Part shown: positions 7,488-63,798 of the stretch, piece after piece | Layout: each line of letters opens with the position of its first letter | How positions within the stretch are numbered: position 1 is the first letter of the stretch | Program-made: the position numbers and the translations under genes | NCBI GenBank assembly: GCA_903944345.1 | Contig: CAJARJ010000005.1 | Location: 7,890-71,889 of the forward strand | Source of the DNA: Candidatus Omnitrophota bacterium | Lineage (GTDB): Bacteria; Omnitrophota; Gorgyraeia; Zapsychrales; Fredricksoniimonadaceae | Length of the DNA: 64,000 bases | Reading direction: 5' to 3' | Notes under the pieces: model-generated | What the model was told of the DNA's origin: nothing | Seen by the model: the letters and a program-made list of their open reading frames with translations, nothing else | Database searches by the model: none

Positions 7488-8135
7488 ATGTCTTACAAAT
7501 TGCCCCAGTTAAAATATTCTTACGACGCACTCGAACCTTTCATTGATGCCAAGACTATGGAAACTCATCACTCCAAACATCATCAGACCTATGTTGACCG
7601 CTTTAATGCGGCTATTGCCGGAAAACCTGATCTTGAGAAGATTGACGGTGAAACTCTGATTGCCAATATTGACCAGGTTCCTGAAGACATTCGTACTGCA
7701 GTGCGTAACAACGGTGGCGGTGCGGTCAACCATACTTTCTATTGGGATATTATTGCCCCCAAAGCAGGAGGAGAACCCCAGGGACATATTGGCGATGCTA
7801 TTAACACATTATTCGGCTCTTTCGCCGGATTCAAAGCCAAGTTTTCTGATGCTGCGGTGACACAGTTTGGCTCCGGATGGGCCTGGCTGGTTTCAGCCAA
7901 AGACGGCAAGTTGGAAATTGTAAAGACGGCCAATCAGGACACCCCCTTATCCTCAGGGAAAAAACCGCTTCTGGCAATAGATGTATGGGAACACGCCTAT
8001 TATTTGAAATATCAAAATCGTCGCCCTGAATATGTAGAAGCATTTTTCAATGTTATTAATTGGCGACGGGTAGATGAATTGTATACTTTTGCTAAAAATA
8101 GCAGCAAGCCATCTTGCGGCTGTTCCTGTTGCTAA
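7488..8135 (+). CDS. Fe/Mn-family superoxide dismutase with cysteine-rich C-terminal tail
   Basis: HHSKHH, NHTFYW and DVWEHAYY metal-ligand motifs; GGAGGA RBS; ends ...FAKNSSKPSCGCSCC. Confidence 0.9.
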   Translation: MSYKLPQLKYSYDALEPFIDAKTMETHHSKHHQTYVDRFNAAIAGKPDLEKIDGETLIANIDQVPEDIRTAVRNNGGGAVNHTFYWDIIAPKAGGEPQGHIGDAINTLFGSFAGFKAKFSDAAVTQFGSGWAWLVSAKDGKLEIVKTANQDTPLSSGKKPLLAIDVWEHAYYLKYQNRRPEYVEAFFNVINWRRVDELYTFAKNSSKPSCGCSCC

Positions 8136-8217: not shown

Positions 8218-8250
8218 AGAAAAAGCGGTTTAATCCGCTTTTTCTTTTTT
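8218..8250 (+). terminator. Rho-independent terminator after sod
   Basis: AAAAAGCGG-tttaat-CCGCTTTTT hairpin followed by CTTTTTT. Confidence 0.6.
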
Positions 8251-8293
8251 CTGGTATCTTTAACAATAATATTTCGCAGGAAAGACTTTATTA

Positions 8294-9001
8294 ATGATGA
8301 AATCATGGAAAATCCCCGCACGGTATCAACCCAAGGGATTCAAAATAATTTATGAGGACGCCGATCTTATTGTAGGCGAAAAGTCGCCGGGTATACTGAC
8401 TGTCGCGGCAGCATGGGAACGAGTGAACACCGTTCATCACGCTTTGAATCTTTACGTGCGTAAAGGCAACTCCAGATCACGCAAATCGGTTTTTGTTGTT
8501 CATCGCCTGGATCAGGCGACTTCCGGGTTGCTGATCTTTGCTAAAAGTGAAGCCGTCTGCCAGAAACTTAAGAGCGAATGGAAGAATGTGCGTAAAACAT
8601 ATTTCACGGTCGTACATGGCCGGCTTAACGTCCTTTCCGGAGAGATATCAAGCTTTCTTCAGGAAGATGAGGATTACATGGTGCATGTAACCGATCAGGA
8701 TGATAAAGCTAAATTTGCTATTACAAGATACACTGTTGTCGCGTCTGCTCATTTATTCAGCCTGCTCAAGATTGATCTGGTGACGGGCAGAAAGAATCAA
8801 ATCCGGGTGCACATGGCCTCGGAAGGCCATCCTGTTGTGGGTGACGGGAAATACGGCCCGGCGCAAAAGAAACATTCGCGACTGGCCCTGCATTCGCAAG
8901 CCTTAGCGTTCAATCATCCGGTAACTGGTGAACCCATGCTTTTCGATTCCGCTGTTCCGGCATATTTTTATCAATTGGTTCCAGCGAATTTGCTCCCTTA
9001 A
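8294..9001 (+). CDS. RluA-family pseudouridine synthase
   Basis: HRLDQATSGLLIFAK catalytic-Asp motif; no S4 domain. Confidence 0.8.
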   Translation: MMKSWKIPARYQPKGFKIIYEDADLIVGEKSPGILTVAAAWERVNTVHHALNLYVRKGNSRSRKSVFVVHRLDQATSGLLIFAKSEAVCQKLKSEWKNVRKTYFTVVHGRLNVLSGEISSFLQEDEDYMVHVTDQDDKAKFAITRYTVVASAHLFSLLKIDLVTGRKNQIRVHMASEGHPVVGDGKYGPAQKKHSRLALHSQALAFNHPVTGEPMLFDSAVPAYFYQLVPANLLP

Positions 9002-9026
9002 TTGAAAAGTTTTTTAAAAAACTTTC

Positions 9027-9049
9027 TTTTTATTGTATTGTGTTATAAT
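9027..9049 (+). promoter_or_regulatory. Putative extended -10 promoter (TGtTATAAT) for the RRM protein gene
   Basis: TG-n-TATAAT at 9041-9049; poor -35; gives a ~130-nt leader. Confidence 0.3.
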
Positions 9050-9188
9050 TGTAACAAATTTTTAAAAGGCTATGTGTTGAGCTCAGGAAGGTGAGGGAAG
9101 GGATAAACAGCCACGCATACCAACAAAGTTTTTGCTAAGTTACCAGGTGCCTAATTTGGGCACAATTATACTAAACAGGAGAGACAGG

Positions 9189-9548
9189 ATGAATTTGTAC
9201 GTCGGCAACCTTTCATATGAAGCAACAGAAGAAGATTTGCGTCAGGCTTTCAGCCAATTTGGAGCAATCGACAAGGTTTCCTTAATGAAAGACAAGATCA
9301 GCGGTCAGTCGAGAGGTTTTGCTTTTGTTGAAATGCCTTCGAAAGAAGAAGCCGAGGCTGCAATCGGTTCTCTTAACGGAAAAGATCTTAAAGGTCGTCC
9401 GATTACTGTGAACGAAGCTCGTCCTAAAACTGAAGGCGGCGAAAGACGCGGCGGTTTTGGTGGCGGACGTGGCGGTTTCGGTGGCGGCGGCGGTGGTTTT
9501 GGTGGCGGAAGAGATCATGGCAGACGCTCGGATCGCGATCGTTATTGA
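9189..9548 (+). CDS. Glycine-rich RNA-binding protein (single RRM plus RGG/GGF tail)
   Basis: RNP2 LYVGNL and RNP1 RGFAFVEM; C-terminal GGFGGGRGGFGGGGGGFGGGR; AGGAGAG RBS. Confidence 0.85.
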   Translation: MNLYVGNLSYEATEEDLRQAFSQFGAIDKVSLMKDKISGQSRGFAFVEMPSKEEAEAAIGSLNGKDLKGRPITVNEARPKTEGGERRGGFGGGRGGFGGGGGGFGGGRDHGRRSDRDRY

Positions 9549-9581
9549 TCTGTTTTCCATAAATGTGCAATCTGTTCAAAA

Positions 9582-9611
9582 ATCCCGTCAGCCTAAAAAC
9601 TGACGGGATTT
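9582..9611 (+). terminator. Hairpin terminator after the RRM gene
   Basis: ATCCCGTCAG-cctaaaaa-CTGACGGGAT 10-bp stem then TTTCAT. Confidence 0.5.
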
Positions 9612-9647
9612 CATAAAACTTACTTTCAGGAAAGGAATAGGTCTAAT

Positions 9648-10130
9648 ATGTCAAAAAAGTTTTCCGGTTTTTGTCTGACTTTAATCCTTCTTTTAACGGC
9701 TTCTTCCTTGGTTTTCGCTCAAGCCGCGGCTCCTGTTGACTCTCCCGAAAACAAGACCATTTTTTCCTATAAGAAAGAATTGGGAATGACGGATGAACAG
9801 GAAAAGAATCTGAATTCTATTCTGGAAGAATTCCAGCAGTATTTTAATGCAAAAAAAGATTCGTTAATTGCTGTGGAAAAAGAAATTGCCGACTTGGTTA
9901 CTTCAAAAGGCAGCCTTGAAACTATCAAAGCAAAAATAGATGACCTTGCCAAACTTAAGGCTGAGGTTACATTCAAGGATATCGAAACTTCACGTCGCGT
10001 TGAATCTGTTTTGAAACCTGAACAGATTGAACAGTGGAAGATGATACAAACAGAAGCTATTGAGATGCTCAGAAATCAGATGGCTGCGGGGCAAGCATCC
10101 ACGCCTGCTCCCATGGAAACTGTTAAGTAA
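9648..10130 (+). CDS. Periplasmic Spy/CpxP-like (LTXXQ-type) protein with signal peptide
   Basis: Signal peptide ...SLVFAQAAAP; helical body with LKPEQIEQW (LTXXQ-like) motif. Confidence 0.45.
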   Translation: MSKKFSGFCLTLILLLTASSLVFAQAAAPVDSPENKTIFSYKKELGMTDEQEKNLNSILEEFQQYFNAKKDSLIAVEKEIADLVTSKGSLETIKAKIDDLAKLKAEVTFKDIETSRRVESVLKPEQIEQWKMIQTEAIEMLRNQMAAGQASTPAPMETVK

Positions 10131-28266: not shown

Positions 28267-30105
28267 ATGCGGCGCCAGTCGAAACGTCCTGGTTTTTACT
28301 GGGTCTATATCGTTCGCTGCCGATTGGGGACTTATTATGTTGGTTGCACTAATGATCTTGAAAAACGGATTAAACGGCATAATACGGGTCAAGGTGCAAA
28401 ATATTTAAGAGGCCGAGGCCCGGTTGAGCTTGTCTACAGAACAAAATGCCCAACCTTTGCTGCAGCCCTTCGTCTGGAATGGAAAATCAAACAGCTCTCA
28501 CATTCAGATAAAGAAAGATTGTTGTCGCAATATTCTGCTCAAGCAGCTTTAACTGCCAGACAAGATCCAAAATCGACGAATGCTGATAAAAGGAAAAATA
28601 TGAATGAAATTAACGAAAAAGAATTTCTCAGGCTTGCTTCCAAAGGTGGGCTTATTCCGGTATTTCGGGAGATCCCGGGCGACCTTGAGACGCCAGTTTC
28701 AGCCTATTTTAAAATCAGCAAGGCCAACAAATATTCGTTTCTGCTTGAATCTGTTGAAGGCGGAGAGAAACTGGCACGTTATTCTTTTCTGGCAGCAGCG
28801 CCAGAATGTGTTCTGGAGTCTAAAGGACGTGTGGCTAAAATTATTCGTTTTACAAAAAAAGGCCCTGTAGCCCATGCGGCTCCTTTTCGTGATTCACCAT
28901 TGGAAATCGTTCGGGAGTTGATTAGTAAGTATAATTATGTTAATATCTCAGGTCTTCCGGGTTTTAGTGGAGGATTTGTAGGCTATCTTGGCTATGATAT
29001 GGTTCGGTTCTTTGAGAATTTGCCAGAAAAAACTGAAGATGATCTTGGTTTACCTGATATGGTTCTGATGCTTGCCAAGGATTTACTGATCTTTGATCAT
29101 TTGCATCATACGATCAAAGTCATTAGCTGTACGGAGATAGACAGCCATGATGACCGATTAACAAAAATCCGTAAATTCAGGCAGGCCCATAAAAGAATCG
29201 CTAAAATGGTTGGTTTATTGTCTGCACCTTTACCAAAATTGAAACGTGCCAGACAAAAATCGTCCTCCGCAGAAGCCAAAGCTACTGCCGATTTGTCAAA
29301 AACGAAGTACGAGTCTATGGTCAGCCGGGCAAAAGAAGAAATTCGCTCGGGTGAAATTATACAAGTTGTTCTCTCTCAGCGTTTTAAGGTTGATTGTCCG
29401 ATTGATTCCATAGAACTTTATAGAACCCTTCGTAATCTTAATCCGTCACCGTATATGTATTTATTAAACCTTGACGGTCTCAATATTGTCGGTTCTTCTC
29501 CGGAATTACTTATGCGTTGCGAGAATGGCATTGTCGAAACTCGACCGATCGCAGGAACCAGACCTCGAGGGCATTCTCTGGAGGATGATCTAAGGCTCGA
29601 ACAAGAGCTTCTGAATGATCCTAAAGAACGGGCAGAACATGTCATGCTCGTTGATCTGGGACGCAATGATCTCGGGCGAGTCTGCCGGGAAGGCAGCGTC
29701 AGGGTCACTGATCTCATGTCTGTTGAACGTTTTTCACACGTTATGCATATTGTCTCCAACGTCCGTGGAGAATTGGCTGAAGGACAAGATGCCTTAAGCG
29801 CGCTTCAATCTGTTTTTCCGGCCGGGACTTTATCCGGAGCACCCAAAGTCCGCGCCATGCAGATTATCGAGGAATTGGAAACAAAACGCCGTGGCCCCTA
29901 TGGGGGGTGTGTTGGATATTTCAGCTTCTCCGGAAATATCGATACCTGTATAACGATTCGTACGATTGTTTTAAGCAAGGGGTCTGCTTATATTCAGGCT
30001 GGCGCGGGAATCGTGGCAGATTCAGATCCTTTTACCGAATACAACGAAACACTAAACAAGGCTAAAGCGCAAATAAAAGCGCTGCAATTGGCGCAACGGC
30101 GCTGA
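28267..30105 (+). CDS. trpE: In-frame fusion: N-terminal GIY-YIG (YhbQ/UPF0213-like) domain + anthranilate synthase component I (TrpE); internal ATG with own RBS at 28600
   Basis: Residues 8-90 YWVYIVRC..GTYYVGCTNDLEKRIKRHNTGQGAKYLRGRGPVELVY match YhbQ; from MNEINEKEFL: LLESVEGGEKLARYSF, PIAGTRPRG, GAGIVADSDP TrpE motifs; no stop between the domains. Confidence 0.75.
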   Translation: MRRQSKRPGFYWVYIVRCRLGTYYVGCTNDLEKRIKRHNTGQGAKYLRGRGPVELVYRTKCPTFAAALRLEWKIKQLSHSDKERLLSQYSAQAALTARQDPKSTNADKRKNMNEINEKEFLRLASKGGLIPVFREIPGDLETPVSAYFKISKANKYSFLLESVEGGEKLARYSFLAAAPECVLESKGRVAKIIRFTKKGPVAHAAPFRDSPLEIVRELISKYNYVNISGLPGFSGGFVGYLGYDMVRFFENLPEKTEDDLGLPDMVLMLAKDLLIFDHLHHTIKVISCTEIDSHDDRLTKIRKFRQAHKRIAKMVGLLSAPLPKLKRARQKSSSAEAKATADLSKTKYESMVSRAKEEIRSGEIIQVVLSQRFKVDCPIDSIELYRTLRNLNPSPYMYLLNLDGLNIVGSSPELLMRCENGIVETRPIAGTRPRGHSLEDDLRLEQELLNDPKERAEHVMLVDLGRNDLGRVCREGSVRVTDLMSVERFSHVMHIVSNVRGELAEGQDALSALQSVFPAGTLSGAPKVRAMQIIEELETKRRGPYGGCVGYFSFSGNIDTCITIRTIVLSKGSAYIQAGAGIVADSDPFTEYNETLNKAKAQIKALQLAQRR

Positions 30106-30759: not shown

Positions 30760-32970
30760 ATGAGCAAGTCGCTTCGTAGCCGTTTTCTGATTATTTTTGG
30801 TGTTCTGGCCGGTTGCATTCTCTTCGCATGGCCACTGGAAAAACGCATAAACCTCGGACTGGATCTTAAAGGGGGGATGCATCTTATCCTCAAAGTCGAG
30901 ACGGATTCCCTCCCGGCTAAAGATCGTCCAGATGCTGTTTTGCGTGCCATGGAAATTCTGCGCAATCGTATTGACAGCCTGGGTGTTGGCGAAACAGTTG
31001 TTCAGCGCCAGGGAGAAAACAATATTCTTGTTCAGTTGCCTGGTGTTACAGACCGGGAAACGGCTGTCGACATGGTTAAACGTGTGGCGCACCTTGAATT
31101 CCATCTGGTGGATGATGATTCTGCCAGAATGCAGGAGGCTCTTAAAGGCTCTGTTCCTGAAGGTGTTCTGCTCAAAACCATCAAAGATGACAATGATCAG
31201 ATTCTCATAAGCGCGAAAGCGGCTTTACAGGGTTCGGCCATTACTGATGCCAAGGTTGATTTTGACCAAACCGGAATTTCTCCACAAATTTCCCTTTCCT
31301 TTAACGCCCAGGGAACCAAAGATTTTGCCGCGCTGACCCAGGATAATGTTGGTAAACGGCTGGCTATTGTTCTTGATGGGGAAGTGCTTTCGGCCCCTAA
31401 CATTCGCGAACCAATTCTGACTGGCAGCGCCCAAATCAGTGGTCAATTTACTTTTGATGAAGCCTCACTCCTCGCGCTGGCGCTGCGTTCCGGTTCATTA
31501 CCTGTCCCGATTCATATTGAAGAAGAACGTACAGTTGGCCCTCTTTTAGGACAGGACTCTATTAACGCGGGATTTAAAGCTGTCCTTATTGGTGCGCTTT
31601 TGGTGTTCTTTTTTATGATCGTCTATTATATGATTGGCGGTCTTGTGGCCACTCTGGCGCTTATGCTGAATTTGATCATGACTGTCGGGATCATGGGATT
31701 TCTTAATGTCATGCTGCCCAACTCACAAGTAACACTGACTCTGCCCGGCATTGCCGGTCTGGCGTTGACGCTGGGTATGGCTGTCGATGCCAATATCCTT
31801 ATTAATGAACGTATGCGTGAAGAAATCGATAACGGCCGCCCTCTCGCCGCTGCTGTAAACGCAGGCTATGACAAGGCCCTGACCGCGATTATTGATTCAA
31901 ACGTAACCACGATTATTGCTGCCTTCATGTTATTCCAGTTCGGGTCCGGTCCGATCAAGGGCTTTGCCGTTACTCTGACCATCGGCTTGTTAGCAAGTTT
32001 GTTCTCTGCTGTGTATGTAACACGTACTGTTTTTATGCTCCTTCTGGAGAAGAACTGGATCAAGTCCTTACCCATGTTGCGTCTTATCAAGGAAACCAAA
32101 ATTGACTTTATCGGGAAAGCTCCAATCTTCATAATTGCGGCAATTTTGCTTATGACTCTGGGACTTTATAATCTTTACCAGAAAAAAGATACAGCTTATG
32201 GTATAGATTTTGCCGGCGGGCAGGTTCAGGAGTATCGCTTTACAAATCCGCTGTCTGCAGAAGACCTGCGTAAAGCTTTTAAAAACGCCGGGGTAAAGGA
32301 TGCTGTTATTCAACAATTTGCACAAAATCCGCAGAATGTCATCATTCGAACACCTGAAGACACCTATGAGTTGGTTCAGCAAACACTCAAACAGTCTTTC
32401 CCAGGCAATGCCTTTGAAACTTTACGTATCGAGAAAGTCGGTCCGGTAGTAGGACAACATTTGCGCACACGTGCGTTCTGGGCATTGTTACTTGCCTTGT
32501 TGGGAATCATCATTTATGTATGGTTTCGTTTCAAGCATATCGATTTTGCCGTGGCGGGAGTTATTGCGCTTTTACACGACGTCTTTATTGCGATGGGGAT
32601 CACGGTTCTTTTAGGACGACAGATTGACCTTCTGATTGTCACGGCTTTTTTGACAATCGCAGGGTATTCTATCAATGACACCATTGTTATTTATGATCGT
32701 GTTCGTGAGAATATCGCCAAGTCCGGACACAAAAAGTTTGTTCTCAAGGATGTTATCAATTTAAGTCTGAATCAGACCTTGGGCCGGACACTACTAACTT
32801 CTTTGGCGACTTTACTTGTGGTTATTGCTTTTTATTTCTTTGGCGGTGAAGTTCTTAACACCTTCGCTTTAACATTAGTTATTGGATTTATTGCTGGTAT
32901 TTTCTCAACCATGTACATTGTTTCACCTCTGGTTATCTGGTGGAATCTGCTCAGAAAAACATCCTGGTGA
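30760..32970 (+). CDS. secDF: Fused protein-export membrane protein SecDF
   Basis: 736 aa; SecD N-term (LGLDLKGGMHL) and SecF core (GIDFAGGQVQEY) in one frame. Confidence 0.85.
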   Translation: MSKSLRSRFLIIFGVLAGCILFAWPLEKRINLGLDLKGGMHLILKVETDSLPAKDRPDAVLRAMEILRNRIDSLGVGETVVQRQGENNILVQLPGVTDRETAVDMVKRVAHLEFHLVDDDSARMQEALKGSVPEGVLLKTIKDDNDQILISAKAALQGSAITDAKVDFDQTGISPQISLSFNAQGTKDFAALTQDNVGKRLAIVLDGEVLSAPNIREPILTGSAQISGQFTFDEASLLALALRSGSLPVPIHIEEERTVGPLLGQDSINAGFKAVLIGALLVFFFMIVYYMIGGLVATLALMLNLIMTVGIMGFLNVMLPNSQVTLTLPGIAGLALTLGMAVDANILINERMREEIDNGRPLAAAVNAGYDKALTAIIDSNVTTIIAAFMLFQFGSGPIKGFAVTLTIGLLASLFSAVYVTRTVFMLLLEKNWIKSLPMLRLIKETKIDFIGKAPIFIIAAILLMTLGLYNLYQKKDTAYGIDFAGGQVQEYRFTNPLSAEDLRKAFKNAGVKDAVIQQFAQNPQNVIIRTPEDTYELVQQTLKQSFPGNAFETLRIEKVGPVVGQHLRTRAFWALLLALLGIIIYVWFRFKHIDFAVAGVIALLHDVFIAMGITVLLGRQIDLLIVTAFLTIAGYSINDTIVIYDRVRENIAKSGHKKFVLKDVINLSLNQTLGRTLLTSLATLLVVIAFYFFGGEVLNTFALTLVIGFIAGIFSTMYIVSPLVIWWNLLRKTSW

Positions 32971-33020
32971 ACCTATAATGGGGAGTTTATTTGCTCCCTG
33001 AGCGGGGAAAGTTTGATGAA

Positions 33021-33054
33021 AAAGCCTTTACGCCTATGGCGCAAAGGCTTTTTC
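33021..33054 (+). terminator. Rho-independent terminator after secDF
   Basis: AAAGCCTTTACGCC-tatg-GGCGCAAAGGCTTT stem (1 mismatch) followed by TTCC. Confidence 0.55.
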
Positions 33055-33070
33055 CTTAACCGGAGTCAGT

Positions 33071-34963
33071 ATGTTCCGTTCAATAAAATATTTTGTCTCC
33101 CAGCATATTGCCTTCGATGAATTCTCTACCGGGCTCATTCGTTTCGGATACGCACGTGTCAAAACTGTTGCCCAGGAGGGGGAATACGCCATCCGCGGAG
33201 AAATCATTGACATCTTTCCTTCCGGATTCGATTCGCCGGTACGCATTGACAGTGAAGATGGTATTATCCGAAAAATCTTTTCCTTCCAGATAATCTCGGG
33301 GAAAAATGTCTGGGAACATGAAGCTGTCATAATTTTCCCGGTTAAAGGGCTTGCCCCGGATGAAGTTTTCCAGGAAGACATGCCGTTAACGCCTTTTGTG
33401 GATATCCGCAAGGGGGACTATGTTGTTCATAACCAGCATGGGATCGGTCGGTTTATCGGCCTCAAAGAGTTTGCGGTCGATCTAAAGCAAGTCGAGCATT
33501 TTGTAATTGAGTACCAAGGTGGAGATAAACTTTTTGTACCCCAGAAGGATCTTCATCTCGTCCAGAAATACATTGGCTTCACAAAAAAGCCCCCCCGTCT
33601 TTTCCGCCTTGGCTCCCGCGAATGGGAAAAGATCCGCAAGACAATAGAAAAACGACTCCAACGCCTTGCCTCAGAACTCCTTCACGTGCAGGCGTTGCGT
33701 AACAGCATGGTAGGGTTTGCCTGTACCAAAGACAATGAATGGCAGTCCGAATTCGAACAAACGTTTCCTTTTATTGAAACTCCGGATCAGAGTAAAGCTG
33801 CACTTGAAGTTAAGGCAGACATGGAATCCCCCCGACCAATGGATCGTTTGTTATGTGGCGATGTGGGATACGGAAAAACAGAAGTTGCCATGCGTGCAGC
33901 CTTCAAGGCTGTCATGAACGCAAAACAAGTCGCAATTCTGGTGCCGACAACAGTTCTGGCGGAACAGCATTATCTTAATTTTTCAAGGCGGATGAAGGAC
34001 TTTCCTGTGCGTATCGGCATGGTTTCCCGTTTCAGAAGCAAAAATGAACAAATTCATACCATTAAAGAAGCCGCTGCCGGAAAAGTGGATATTATTATCG
34101 GAACGCATCGCCTGCTTTCCAAAGATGTACACTTCAGGGATCTTGGGCTGATCATTATTGATGAAGAACAACGCTTTGGAGTAACAGCAAAAGAACGACT
34201 AAAACATATGAAGCTGTTATGCGATGTGTTAACAATGACCGCGACACCGATACCGCGCACGCTTTATATGGCTATGGTCAGTTGCCGTGACATGTCCGTC
34301 ATTTCCACCCCTCCGTCCAACCGGATTCCGGTTGCAACCGAAATCATCTGCTTTGATGAAGACACTATTCGTCTGGCCATTAAACGTGAACTGGCCCGCG
34401 GGGGACAGGTCTTCTTTCTTCATAATCATGTTGAAGACATTATTACTGTCGCAGGAAAGATCGCAAAACTTGTTCCTAAAGCTCGTCTTGGCATAGGTCA
34501 TGGGCAAATGCCGGGGAAAGACCTGGAAAATATCATGCTTGATTTTCTCAAAGGCGAGATTGATGTTTTAGTCTGTACGACTATAATAGAATCAGGTATA
34601 GATATTCCTAATGCCAATACGCTGATTGTTAATAAAGCTGACCGTTTCGGGTTATCCGATCTGCATCAACTGCGTGGACGTGTAGGACGTACAAATATAA
34701 AAGCCTATGCCTATTTCATAGTCCCGGACAGATCAATTTTATCCGGTGTCGCGCGCAAACGGATGGAAGTTTTACAGAAATTCAGCGATCTGGGTGCCGG
34801 ATTTCATATTGCATTCGAAGATCTTCAGATAAGAGGCGCTGGCAACCTCCTCGGGGAACAGCAGCACGGCTATATTTCCAATGTAGGCTTTGACCTTTAT
34901 TGCCGAATGTTAAAAGGATCAGTCGAAAATCTTAAAAAAGAAATGGCTCGCACCAATGCTTAA
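33071..34963 (+). CDS. mfd: Transcription-repair coupling factor Mfd, short form (D3-D4(RID)-D5-D6 only; lacks UvrB-homology D1a/D2/D1b and C-terminal D7)
   Basis: 630 aa; RNAP-interaction domain [17 protein letters not shown]...[15 protein letters not shown]; helicase motifs [24 protein letters not shown]; ends right after [13 protein letters not shown]; terminator upstream, so no N-terminal extension. Confidence 0.75.
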
Positions 34964-35888
34964 TAAATACTTTCTTTCCTGTTTTCTCCTGTTCTGTTTT
35001 TTTTATCCCCGTCCTTCTTTAGCCATCGAAGACGGCATTCTGGCCATCGTTAATGACCAGGTTATTACCATCAAAGACTTGCGCGATGCCATGAAAGGCG
35101 TTTTTTCCCAACTTAGAATTGAAGGACGTTCGCCGGCAGAAATTGAAGAAATAATGACTCAATATGAAACCAAGGGCATTCAGCAGCTTATAGAAGATCG
35201 ACTTGTCCTTACGGCGGCCGAACAATCGGGAATTATTATTAAACCGGTCGCCATCGAAACCAAAATTCGCGAAATAGAAAGCAATTACCCTTCCTCCCAG
35301 GCCTTTCGTGATGCTCTTTTGAAAGAAGGACTTACGATTACTGATTTGCGCAAAAAGATTTCTGATCAGTTCAAAGGCCAGGTTGTAGTCGAAAACGAGG
35401 TGCGTGCAAAGATCAAGATCAACCCCCAGGAAGTAACCGCATATTTCAATTCCCATATTCAGGAGTTTAAGAACCGTCCGCGATTATACCTGAATTCTAT
35501 CTTTGTCCAGAAAGGACTGGCGTCTGAGTCAGCCAAAGAGAAGATTGAACAAGCTATGGACCAGGTCAAGCTGGGCCGTGATTTCAAGGAAGTCCTCCAG
35601 GAATTCTCCGAGCTGCCTTCGGTTGGAGAGATCAGTTCGGACTCCCTGCGTCCCGAATTGAAAGATAAAGTAAGTTTCCTCAACATAGGACAGGTTTCGG
35701 AAATTATTGAAATGGACAACGGTTACTATATTTTCAAACTGGAAGGCCGTACTCCTGGTATTGAGGCAAGCCTGTCAGCTGAAAAAGATCGTATTTACCA
35801 AAAAATTTATCAGGACAAGTTTCGTCAACGGTTTAGGGAATGGATTGATGGTCTACGCAAAAAAACCTATATTGAAATCAAAGAATAA
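34956..35888 (+). CDS. SurA-like periplasmic chaperone / PPIase-domain protein
   Basis: Signal peptide; SurA N-domain-like (ILAIVNDQVITIKDL); parvulin-like C-terminus (GQVSEIIEMDNGYYIFKLEG). Confidence 0.6.
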   Translation: MLNKYFLSCFLLFCFFYPRPSLAIEDGILAIVNDQVITIKDLRDAMKGVFSQLRIEGRSPAEIEEIMTQYETKGIQQLIEDRLVLTAAEQSGIIIKPVAIETKIREIESNYPSSQAFRDALLKEGLTITDLRKKISDQFKGQVVVENEVRAKIKINPQEVTAYFNSHIQEFKNRPRLYLNSIFVQKGLASESAKEKIEQAMDQVKLGRDFKEVLQEFSELPSVGEISSDSLRPELKDKVSFLNIGQVSEIIEMDNGYYIFKLEGRTPGIEASLSAEKDRIYQKIYQDKFRQRFREWIDGLRKKTYIEIKE

Positions 35889-36834
35889 ATTACCTCCAGG
35901 TAAGAAGCTGGTCGGGATTACCATGGGTGACCCTGCCGGTATTGGCCCCGAGGTAATTGCGGGAACCTTGAACTCTCCCGGATTCTCTTTACCCCGGGAC
36001 ACGGAATGTGTTGTTATCGGCAACGCATCTGTTTTTCGACTTGCCGGAGGCAAACCAGGCGAGGGACATATTTTTATTGATATTACTGCACAAAAACTGG
36101 CCCATCAACCAGGAAAGCCTTCGTCTGCTTCTGCCCGCGATTCTCTGTATTATCTCGAGCATGCGATCCAGATGTTAAAAGACGGACGTCTCTCGGCTTT
36201 AGTGACCGGACCTGTATGTAAAGAATCCATCGGACAATTCCTCCCGGGCTTTCGAGGTCATACAACATTCCTTGCCACGGAATTTTCCTGTAAAGATGTC
36301 GAGATGCTTTTTATTGCTCCTGGTACAAAAATGCTGTTGGTGACCAGACACATCCCCCTTAAAGATGTGGCCCGTGCTTTATCCGCCAGGAAAATTACAG
36401 CTGTTATTAATACTGCGGCCTTATGTCTACGGCATCAATTTGGAATCGTTGCGCCCAGGATAGCAGTTTGCGGACTGAATCCGCATGCGGGGGAGAACGG
36501 CCATATCGGCAAAGAAGAACAGGAACATATTATTCCGGCTATCCGCAATCTTTCAGCTTCTGGCTGGGATGTCCAGGGACCATTTCCGGCAGACACTCTT
36601 TTTGAGCCCCGTATCAGTAAAGATTTCGACCTGCTGGTAACCATGTACCATGACCAGGGCCTTCCGGTTTTAAAAGCAATGCATTTCGATAGTCTGGTTA
36701 ATGTGACTGCCGGGCTTCCTTTTGTACGAACATCTCCGGCCCATGGAACAGCCTTTAATATTGCGGGAAAACGAATTGCCTCAATCGGTTCTATGCGGGC
36801 GGCAGTACAACTAGCCCTCAAGATGAGCTCATGA
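35848..36834 (+). CDS. pdxA: 4-hydroxythreonine-4-phosphate dehydrogenase (start ATG 35848, alternative 35923)
   Basis: ITMGDPAGIGPEV N-terminal signature; HTTFLATEF, NPHAGENGH metal-site motifs. Confidence 0.8.
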   Translation: MVYAKKPILKSKNKLPPGKKLVGITMGDPAGIGPEVIAGTLNSPGFSLPRDTECVVIGNASVFRLAGGKPGEGHIFIDITAQKLAHQPGKPSSASARDSLYYLEHAIQMLKDGRLSALVTGPVCKESIGQFLPGFRGHTTFLATEFSCKDVEMLFIAPGTKMLLVTRHIPLKDVARALSARKITAVINTAALCLRHQFGIVAPRIAVCGLNPHAGENGHIGKEEQEHIIPAIRNLSASGWDVQGPFPADTLFEPRISKDFDLLVTMYHDQGLPVLKAMHFDSLVNVTAGLPFVRTSPAHGTAFNIAGKRIASIGSMRAAVQLALKMSS

Positions 36835-62424: not shown

Positions 62425-63798
62425 TCAGAGGCCCTTGAACTCTACCGCAATTTTCTGAACCACATCTTTTGCGTCGCCAAAAATCATACGGGTATTATCG
62501 TAATAGAAAAGCTCGTTCTCCACTCCGGCAAAGCCGGTATTCATCGAACGCTTTATAACAAAAACCGTTTTAGCCTTGAACGTTTCAATAATGGGCATTC
62601 CGTATATCGGGGAGGCTTTGTCGGTCATTGCTGCCGGATTAACCGTGTCATTGGCACCAACCACAATACAGACATCCACCGAGTCCATAGTCGGATTGAT
62701 ATTATCCATTTCCACCAACTGCTCATAGGGAACATTAGCTTCAGCCAGAAGAACATTCATATGACCCGGCATGCGGCCGGCAACCGGATGAATGGCATAC
62801 TTGACATCGGCTCCGTTTTTCTGTAACAATTCTCCCAACTCACGGACAACATGCTGGGCTTGAGCGACCGCAAGTCCGTATCCAGGCACAATAACCACCG
62901 AGCGGGCGGCTTCTAGCACCAGAAACGCATCCTGGGCAGAAACAGATTTTATCTCGCCTTTAACCGTACCCGAAATCTTCTTCTTTGCTGTACTAAACCC
63001 GCTAAAAAGAACATTGGACAGGGAACGGTTCATGGCCTTGCACATGATTTGGGTAAGAATAATCCCGCTTGCTCCAACCAGAGTTCCCGTGACAATCAGA
63101 ATGCTGTTCATGATTACAAAACCGGAAGCGCAGGCAGCAAGACCGGAATAACTGTTGAGAAGCGAGATGACCACAGGCATATCGGCTCCGCCAATAGGAA
63201 TGACAGAAGTCACGCCCAAGAGGAGAGATAAAACAAGAATGCCAAGAAAGACAGGATAAGACTGCGCAGGATGCCAGCAGTATATCACTCCTGCCAGCAT
63301 TAAAAGGACAAGAAGACCAGTGTTAAACCACTTCTGACCATTAAAAAGAATAGGCTTGGCGGAAAAAACACCATTTAATTTCCCCCAGGCAATCAGCGAC
63401 CCGGTAAACGTTACGCCGCCAATAAGAACAGTCAAGAAAGTTGAAACAGAAGTAAACAAATCACTGCGTGGGGTGAAATGATATGTGCTCCAGGCAACAA
63501 GCAGGGAAGCCAGGCCGCCAAAACCGTTAAGAATAGCCACCATTTCCGGCATTTGCGTCATTGCAACTGCATACGCCCAGAAAACACCAATAATTGTTCC
63601 AATCACAGCCCCGATAAGAATCCACTCAAATTCAAGCCCCTGGTTAAAAAGGGTTGCTGTAACGGCAAGCAGCATCGCCACGGCGGAAAGCAAATTTCCA
63701 TTTCGCGCGCTGTCCGGATGCGACATCATTTTGAGTCCCCAAATAAAAGCCGCAGCGGATAAAATATAAATAATATTGATCCAGAAATACGAATTCAT
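62425..63798 (-). CDS. pntB: NAD(P) transhydrogenase subunit beta
   Basis: 457 aa on the - strand; multi-TM N-half and C-terminal NADP(H) domain GYGLAVAQAQH...AGRMPGHMNVLLAEA. Confidence 0.9.
   Translation of the reverse strand: MNSYFWINIIYILSAAAFIWGLKMMSHPDSARNGNLLSAVAMLLAVTATLFNQGLEFEWILIGAVIGTIIGVFWAYAVAMTQMPEMVAILNGFGGLASLLVAWSTYHFTPRSDLFTSVSTFLTVLIGGVTFTGSLIAWGKLNGVFSAKPILFNGQKWFNTGLLVLLMLAGVIYCWHPAQSYPVFLGILVLSLLLGVTSVIPIGGADMPVVISLLNSYSGLAACASGFVIMNSILIVTGTLVGASGIILTQIMCKAMNRSLSNVLFSGFSTAKKKISGTVKGEIKSVSAQDAFLVLEAARSVVIVPGYGLAVAQAQHVVRELGELLQKNGADVKYAIHPVAGRMPGHMNVLLAEANVPYEQLVEMDNINPTMDSVDVCIVVGANDTVNPAAMTDKASPIYGMPIIETFKAKTVFVIKRSMNTGFAGVENELFYYDNTRMIFGDAKDVVQKIAVEFKGL

Follow-up and report, generated by a model that had tools for sequence, protein, structure and literature searches.

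Mfd, the transcription-repair coupling factor, is commonly presented as an eight-domain protein of high conservation whose function depends on extensive rearrangements, by which the clamp between domains D2 and D7 is opened and the UvrA surface is unmasked. In the canonical protein D2 is situated between D1a and D1b. The present study concerns an mfd gene of Candidatus Omnitrophota bacterium, located on the forward strand at positions 33071-34963 of a 64,000-nucleotide stretch (the window, i.e. the whole DNA analysed here, positions 7,890 to 71,889 of contig CAJARJ010000005.1, assembly GCA_903944345.1). Its product has 630 aa as against ~1150 in canonical Mfd, about half, as the first-pass annotation of the window had already stated. 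The analysis below indicates that this protein is probably a natural clamp-less coupling factor, in which D2 would be exposed to UvrA, the D2-D7 clamp has been lost and the node formed by the hook and relay helices has been kept.

[quoted passage not shown] Deletion of D7 or of D1-3 derepresses the E. coli Mfd motor, and the residues singled out for the UvrA surface were R165, R181 and F185, the first two being buried against D7 in apo-Mfd (PMC3025350). UvrA binding is abolished by R165A alone, and RNA polymerase (RNAP) binding is abolished by L499R (PMC6320318). The W550/I970 interface between hook and relay helix provides a second node of autoinhibition that does not depend on the D2-D7 clamp (PMC3488230), and the Mfd of Thermus is naturally without autoinhibition and translocates without RNAP (PMC13453472, 2026).

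As compared to canonical Mfd (E. coli, 1148 aa, PDB 2EYQ), the short protein shares D2, the RNAP interaction domain (RID), the relay helix, the two translocase domains (TD1 and TD2), the TRG motif and the hook helices, which are collinear in both, and its residues 107-623 are ~50% identical to many long Mfds. The equivalents of R165, R181, W550 and R953 are kept, and L499 is replaced by F134. In contrast, D1a, D1b, D3 and D7 of the canonical protein are all missing, D2 is N-terminal and the F185 position is acidic. The E. coli variants Mfd-deltaD7 and D7-AAA, and naturally derepressed Thermus thermophilus Mfd, are likewise without a functional D2-D7 clamp, and a derepressed motor with an accessible UvrA surface is also predicted for the short form; Mfd-deltaD7 still performs transcription-coupled repair (PMC3025350). 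However, these variants and Thermus thermophilus Mfd keep D1a, D1b and D3 (Thermus also D7), whereas the loss in the short form is natural, lineage-fixed and larger. The E. coli variant Mfd-deltaBHM (minus D1a-D2-D1b) shares with it the absence of D1a and D1b and the expected derepression of the motor, but this variant has no D2 and no repair coupling, whereas the Omnitrophota protein keeps D2; the first-pass reading of an Mfd without UvrA recruitment fits deltaBHM instead. Domain 2 of UvrB (PDB 3FPN, 3UWX) has the same fold and belongs to the same Pfam family (PF17757) as residues 9-92, but in UvrB it is inserted in the functional helicase domain 1, whereas in the short Mfd it forms a separate N-terminal domain ahead of a different motor. 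RecG has a homologous superfamily 2 motor with the TRG motif (RecG models match aa 212-602 with E 1e-120), together with a wedge domain, and has neither RID nor UvrB-type domain 2. Our literature search on domain-architecture variants of Mfd returned engineered truncations only, and no literature linking Mfd with Omnitrophota was found.

Domain map and predicted fold

The whole 630-aa product scored 865.7 bits against TIGR00580 (mfd, NCBIfam), above the equivalog cutoff of 800, while the proteobacterial model NF007966 was not reached (672 vs 1329), and the protein is an Mfd orthologue. Identity as RecG was excluded, in agreement with the first-pass annotation, by the presence of the RID and by the family scores (best RecG model 402 vs a cutoff of 718 bits, covering aa 212-602 only). 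The gene and its domains were assigned as follows, with the supporting evidence in brackets.

33071-34963, forward strand: short mfd gene, 630 aa, D2-RID-TD1-TD2 (list of open reading frames (ORFs), from ATG; Pfam, NCBIfam, PDB-sequence alignment)
33095-33346, forward strand: D2, UvrA-interaction domain, aa 9-92 (Pfam PF17757, phmmer, blastp, model, conservation, dN/dS)
33347-33388, forward strand: D2-RID linker, aa 93-106, in place of D1b and D3 (~260 aa in E. coli) (entropy, model confidence)
33389-33613, forward strand: D4, the RID, aa 107-181 (Pfam CarD_TRCF_RID; aligns to E. coli 472-546)
33614-33778, forward strand: relay helix and motor linker, aa 182-236 (alignment; AlphaFold2 helix 183-211; invariant columns)
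33779-34300, forward strand: translocase domain 1 (D5), aa 237-410 (Pfam DEAD)
34301-34915, forward strand: translocase domain 2 (D6), aa 411-615, including the TRG motif and the hook helices (Pfam Helicase_C; gapless alignment to E. coli 988)
34916-34963, forward strand: C-terminal tail, short and variable, aa 616-630, with the stop codon (no PF03461 match; variable among the family)

The Pfam matches comprised UvrB_inter (PF17757) at aa 9-92 (E 8.2e-16), CarD_TRCF_RID (PF02559) at aa 113-168 (E 1.4e-16), N-terminal to the motor, DEAD at aa 238-398 (E 1.9e-23) and Helicase_C at aa 440-541 (E 6.5e-20), whereas the TRCF/D7 domain (PF03461) was not detected in the protein at E <= 0.01. When aligned to PDB sequences, residues 107-623 matched E. 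coli Mfd 472-988, from D4 to the hook helices of D6, without a gap, and only 7 residues follow residue 623, the last one aligned. Retention of the RID and of the full translocase, and an end just after D6 without the autoinhibitory C-terminal domain, had been proposed from the sequence before and are borne out by these matches. The N-terminus was a different matter. It had been placed in the D3 region on account of the motif RGEIIDIFP, but residues 10-98 matched E. coli Mfd 133-221, that is D2, as well as 4dfc_A by phmmer against PDB sequences, and a blastp comparison of residues 1-106 with the isolated E. coli domains gave 36% identity to D2 (E 3.5e-16, over E. coli 134-213) and only E = 6 for D3. 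When the protein was aligned globally with E. coli Mfd by MAFFT, its N-terminus did fall opposite D3; this was rejected as a gap-penalty artefact because local, profile and structure methods all give D2. The check that had been proposed for the domain boundaries, alignment to E. coli Mfd, thus leaves D4-D6 collinear and replaces D3 by D2. The architecture is D2-linker-RID(D4)-relay helix-TD1(D5)-TD2(D6), and D1a, D1b, D3 and D7 are absent. A complete UvrB-homology module is not present, D2 starting at about aa 9 with nothing before it and being followed by about 15-20 aa to the RID. The earlier statement that the UvrA-recruiting N-terminal module is missing therefore holds for D1a and D1b and fails for the UvrA-binding D2 itself.

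The motor carries intact Walker A (GDVGYGKT, 263-270) and motif II (DEEQ, 364-367) sequences, is gapless against E. coli 575-988, and its Walker A motif is invariant across the family described below. The RNAP contact L499 of E. coli corresponds to F134, which is hydrophobic. R588 of the TRG motif (E. coli R953) and W185 (E. coli W550) are invariant, and V605 takes the position of E. coli I970.

The predicted structures gave the same assignment. The AlphaFold model of residues 1-106 had a predicted local distance difference test score (pLDDT) of 86, and its best PDB matches by Foldseek were Mfd D2 in 2B2N, 3HJH and 2EYQ, with a root-mean-square deviation of 1.1-1.4 A over 87 columns. This model also matched 4DFC_A, the D2 chain of the entry 'Core UvrA/TRCF complex', with a template-modelling (TM) score of 0.90, and UvrB domain 2 in 3FPN_B, from the UvrA-UvrB interface, with a TM score of 0.89. 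The full-length model (pLDDT 74) had Mfd structures as its top matches (Foldseek E 1e-57 to 1e-59), and RecG (1GM5) was also matched. Disorder is predicted for the D2-RID linker (aa 94-115 with pLDDT below 50), which has the highest entropy and lowest identity of all segments. Within this hypervariable segment F100 (33368-33370) and P105 (33383-33385) are near-invariant, in 120 and 121 of 121 members, respectively, and they could form a docking or hinge point.

Conservation of D2 and of the short form in Omnitrophota

A homologue search covering 5.8 billion proteins, clustered, listed at least 120 clusters of the short form, 63-95% identical to the query, 614-655 aa long and with the same set of Pfam domains, and the check for the same short form in relatives, proposed in the first-pass annotation, thus came out positive. 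Those clusters that carry a name are nearly all labelled Candidatus Omnitrophica or Omnitrophota, and D7 (PF03461) is missing from all 120 short relatives and present in long relatives. The start M-F-x-S-L is conserved in the 121-member family: among the sequences with a residue there, M1 is found in 118 of 120 and F2 in 119 of 119. The identical protein occurs on 11 public contigs from four sources, the longest of 318 kb, where it is annotated as transcription-repair coupling factor.

Two arginines of the UvrA surface are kept almost without exception in the D2 of this family, R42 (E. coli R165) in 120 of 121 members and R58 (E. coli R181) in 121 of 121, and the invariant positions of D2 are Y27, G43, P50, P56, R58 and H83. 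In codon comparisons, D2 of the pair of related loci L007/L008 had a dS of 0.32, a dN of 0.01 and a dN/dS (nonsynonymous to synonymous substitution rate) of 0.02, and that of the pair L001/L002 had a dN/dS of 0.13 with dS near saturation. These comparisons place every retained domain, D2 included, under purifying selection. To keep D2 two separate flanking deletions (D1a; D1b and D3) were needed, which argues for selective retention. Since the arginines that contact UvrA are invariant or nearly so in a lineage without D7, continued UvrA binding is the simplest explanation, and docking of UvrA by D2 has most likely been retained, to judge from this conservation.

Twelve related genome loci were compared with the window. 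All of them have secDF upstream or surA-pdxA-ksgA downstream of the short mfd; secDF lies 5' of it in 11 of the 12, the sequence of the remaining one (L005) beginning at mfd. The complete loci among them show the order trpE-rpsP-yajC-secDF-mfd-surA-pdxA-ksgA, as in the window, and in most of the 12 mfd is flanked by short spacers. Together with the conserved M1 and F2, this synteny upholds the earlier suggestion of a native N-terminus. Ten of the 12 loci are labelled Omnitrophota or Omnitrophica. The other two, L001 ('uncultured Planctomycetales bacterium') and L006 ('Candidatus Elulimicrobium sp.', of the Patescibacteria group in the NCBI taxonomy), show full synteny with the Omnitrophota loci and code for short Mfds of 71-73% identity, and their labels are probably taxonomic mislabels of bins. 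At L003 the tight spacing is broken by a gene for a 566-aa polytopic membrane protein (8233-9933) between secDF and the short mfd; this 1.9-kb insertion was considered as a home of the lost domains and rejected, the encoded protein being unrelated to Mfd domains.

In a second library, holding one representative per 50%-identity cluster, the best 150 matches were considered. Only two of these representatives are short forms, P0121 (57% identity) and P0124 (51%), both with UvrB_inter, RID and motor and without TRCF. The other 148 are canonical Mfds of 929-1332 aa that are 46-54% identical over D4-D6. Motif II of the query, DEEQ, differs from the DEEH of E. coli and was considered as a peculiarity of the short form, but long Mfds have it more often than any other motif II (123 of the 150 representatives), and this idea was rejected. 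The family lengths, the conserved start, the synteny and the few short forms among the representatives lead to the conclusion that the short form is a native, compact, lineage-specific derivative of ordinary Mfd. In the nearest long-form relatives, a long mfd containing D7 is directly followed by a surA-like gene (L016, 11270-12286; L018, 11424-12374), and this adjacency in both long and short forms supports positional orthology. The mfd-surA adjacency itself, conserved in both forms, has no obvious functional rationale.

Two further proteins deserve mention. P0134 is a long Mfd (1112 aa) labelled 'Omnitrophica', which groups with Ratteibacteria-like proteins and has only ~10 close clusters; it was considered as a second full-length copy, but one of its relatives carries a Ratteibacteria label, and it seems to represent a separate lineage and not a paralogue. 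P0375, 690 aa as called on a 12.6-kb metagenome contig, contains RID, motor and TRCF(D7) and no UvrB_inter, a truncation of the kind opposite to the Omnitrophota form and resembling engineered Mfd-deltaBHM.

Gene signals, neighbouring genes and the search for missing domains

The following elements flank the short mfd gene in the window.

30760-32970, forward strand: SecDF fusion gene, 736 aa, upstream neighbour (ORF list; ends 100 nt 5' of mfd)
about 33018-33054, forward strand: hairpin of 16 bp with one mismatch, then a U-run (RNA folding)
33062-33065, forward strand: GGAG ribosome-binding site, 5 nt 5' of the ATG (sequence inspection)
34956-35888, forward strand: SurA-like peptidyl-prolyl isomerase gene, downstream neighbour (start overlaps the mfd stop by 8 nt)

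Both the ribosome-binding site at the ATG and a strong terminator-like hairpin directly upstream had been pointed out in the first-pass annotation, and both were recovered. The intergenic segment 32971-33075 folds with -38.5 kcal/mol (z = -3.87), and none of 200 shuffled sequences was equally stable. The hairpin was not listed by a scan for consensus terminators and was confirmed by folding; it looks like an intrinsic terminator of secDF. As only a 100-nt spacer is found upstream and the stop codon is overlapped by 8 nt downstream, neither flank of mfd can hold the coding sequence of the missing domains. An upstream sequencing error hiding ~400 N-terminal codons, which had been raised as a possible refutation, finds no room in these 100 nt, and the short start is conserved family-wide.

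The missing domains were also sought elsewhere. Tblastn searches with each E. coli Mfd domain found no homologues of D1a, D1b, D3 or D7 in the window or the 12 related loci, and similar searches with UvrA and UvrB returned only cross-matches to D2 there. An NCBIfam scan of ten large ORFs of the window gave no uvr genes, and the 10 kb past its 3' end contain rnf, pnt and ATP-synthase genes, and no uvr or missing-domain gene. For two Omnitrophota genomes, 94% and 93% complete, the KEGG Orthology (KO) table of Seymour et al. (2023) lists uvrA, uvrB, uvrC and one mfd each.

The order of genes 3' of mfd is surA-like, pdxA, ksgA/rsmA and a thioesterase gene. As listed, the pdxA ORF (35707-36834, forward strand) has a TTG start 182 nt inside surA, and the Pfam match to PdxA covers the protein from aa 129 only (profile position 47); translation probably begins at a Met further downstream, e.g. 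at about aa 49. Further upstream, the ORF for TrpE (anthranilate synthase component I; 28267-30105, forward strand) is in frame with an upstream GIY-YIG nuclease domain with no intervening stop. The GIY-YIG part is matched by Pfam at aa 11-80 (E 1.7e-19) and the homology to TrpE sets in at an internal Met, about aa 112; in nine related loci the TrpE match begins at about aa 110-115 only, and in L001 at aa 48. The GIY-YIG part may represent a fusion specific to this window or a small homing-type gene that was inserted. Gene co-orientation is very strong in the window: over positions 1-62400 the long ORFs (>=120 aa, non-overlapping) are almost all on the forward strand, and the minus strand has its first clear gene, pntB, at 62425-63798.

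Competing readings and proposed mechanism

The view that the short gene is an artefact, owing to a truncated call, a frameshift or misassembly, or a pseudogene in decay, is hardly credible given the 11 contigs from four sources, the at least 120 clusters of equal layout, start and similar length, the 100-nt gap upstream and overlapped stop downstream, and the purifying selection estimated for every domain. A split Mfd, in which D1a, D1b and D3 and/or D7 would come from a separate gene and be reassembled with the short polypeptide, had been suggested by the first-pass annotation, and other truncated Mfd-like proteins do occur in databases, e.g. the 690-aa P0375 with RID, motor and D7. But the searches described above recovered none of the four domains, whether from the window, the 12 loci or the 10 kb past the window's 3' end, and the two Omnitrophota genomes in the table of Seymour et al. 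(2023) have an mfd KO count of 1 each. In addition, D2 is inserted inside D1 in the canonical protein, so that a simple gene split cannot fuse D2 to the RID. A split Mfd is thus very improbable.

The more serious question is whether the retained D2 still recruits UvrA. Several observations weigh against this. The residue equivalent to F185 is E62, and Asp or Glu occupies this position in ~95% of the short family, while most long Mfds and E. coli UvrB have an aromatic residue there, and the nearest long relatives already have Ile or Ser. D2 is the least conserved folded domain, with a mean identity to the query of 47% vs 70-78% for RID, TD1 and TD2, and has been evolving at about twice the rate of the motor domains. 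The short protein has lost the D1a/D1b scaffold by which D2 is positioned in canonical Mfd, and the 4DFC structure covers only isolated D2 with a UvrA fragment. The interdomain packing of the full-length model is uncertain (predicted TM score 0.61). Mfd also plays roles that are independent of repair (PMC13453472). The protein could accordingly be a repair-uncoupled factor for RNAP release or against backtracking, whose D2 has been kept for folding, for regulation of the motor or for another partner. This reading is doubtful, though it has to be weighed seriously. The equivalents of R165 and R181 have remained invariant or nearly so even though D7, the only other partner known for them, is missing (PMC3025350), the modelled D2 fold lies ~1.3 A from UvrA-bound D2, the retention of D2 required deletions on both of its sides, and both Omnitrophota genomes checked in Seymour et al. 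(2023) possess UvrABC genes. The first-pass annotation had made a repair-uncoupled RNAP-release factor its main idea, with no UvrA recruitment through D2. That argument rested on the misassignment of D2, which is in fact present with R42 and R58 conserved, and the idea is not supported, though the change from F185 to Asp or Glu leaves some doubt about UvrA coupling. A related possibility is conceivable because the D7 and D1 scaffold is missing and an acidic residue occupies the Phe185 position: D2 may no longer, or not solely, be the UvrA dock and may act as an intramolecular regulator of the motor or recruit another partner, which would make the short forms a distinct class of RNAP-remodelling translocases. 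We regard this as unlikely.

We therefore favour the natural clamp-less coupling factor, for which the following mechanism is proposed. The gene would be the positional mfd orthologue, reduced by three deletions (D1a; D1b and D3; D7) to D2-RID-TD1-TD2. The RID would bind the beta subunit of stalled RNAP, and the RecG-like motor with its TRG motif would translocate on the upstream DNA and displace or reactivate the polymerase, as canonical Mfd does. Because D7 and D1/D3 are missing, the autoinhibitory D2-D7 clamp is impossible, and the ATPase and translocase activities would be derepressed, as in Mfd-deltaD7 or Thermus Mfd. D2 would sit beside the RID on a short flexible linker with its UvrA face always unmasked, and the site could be handed to UvrA(B) without an unmasking step. 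As the hook helices around the relay helix (W185/V605) are retained, some RNAP-dependent control is probably left.

The database label 'transcription-repair coupling factor' was already attached to these proteins; the architecture behind it is lineage-specific and half-size, four of the eight domains having been lost. At 630 aa, the protein would offer a compact model for structural and single-molecule study of the hand-off from RNAP to UvrA, and a test case of how a cell tolerates an unmasked, possibly unregulated translocase. On a less far-reaching reading, which would likewise be new, D2, RID and motor would be the sufficient minimal coupling factor, with no unmasking step. The lineage-wide loss of D1a, D1b, D3 and D7 with D2 under selection amounts to a natural deletion experiment, which suggests that the indispensable core of the coupling factor consists of D2, RID and motor, and that clamp-based autoinhibition and the D1/D3 scaffold are accessories that can be spared. 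This view fits both the dispensability of D7 in vitro (PMC3025350) and an autoinhibition that is not universal (PMC13453472).

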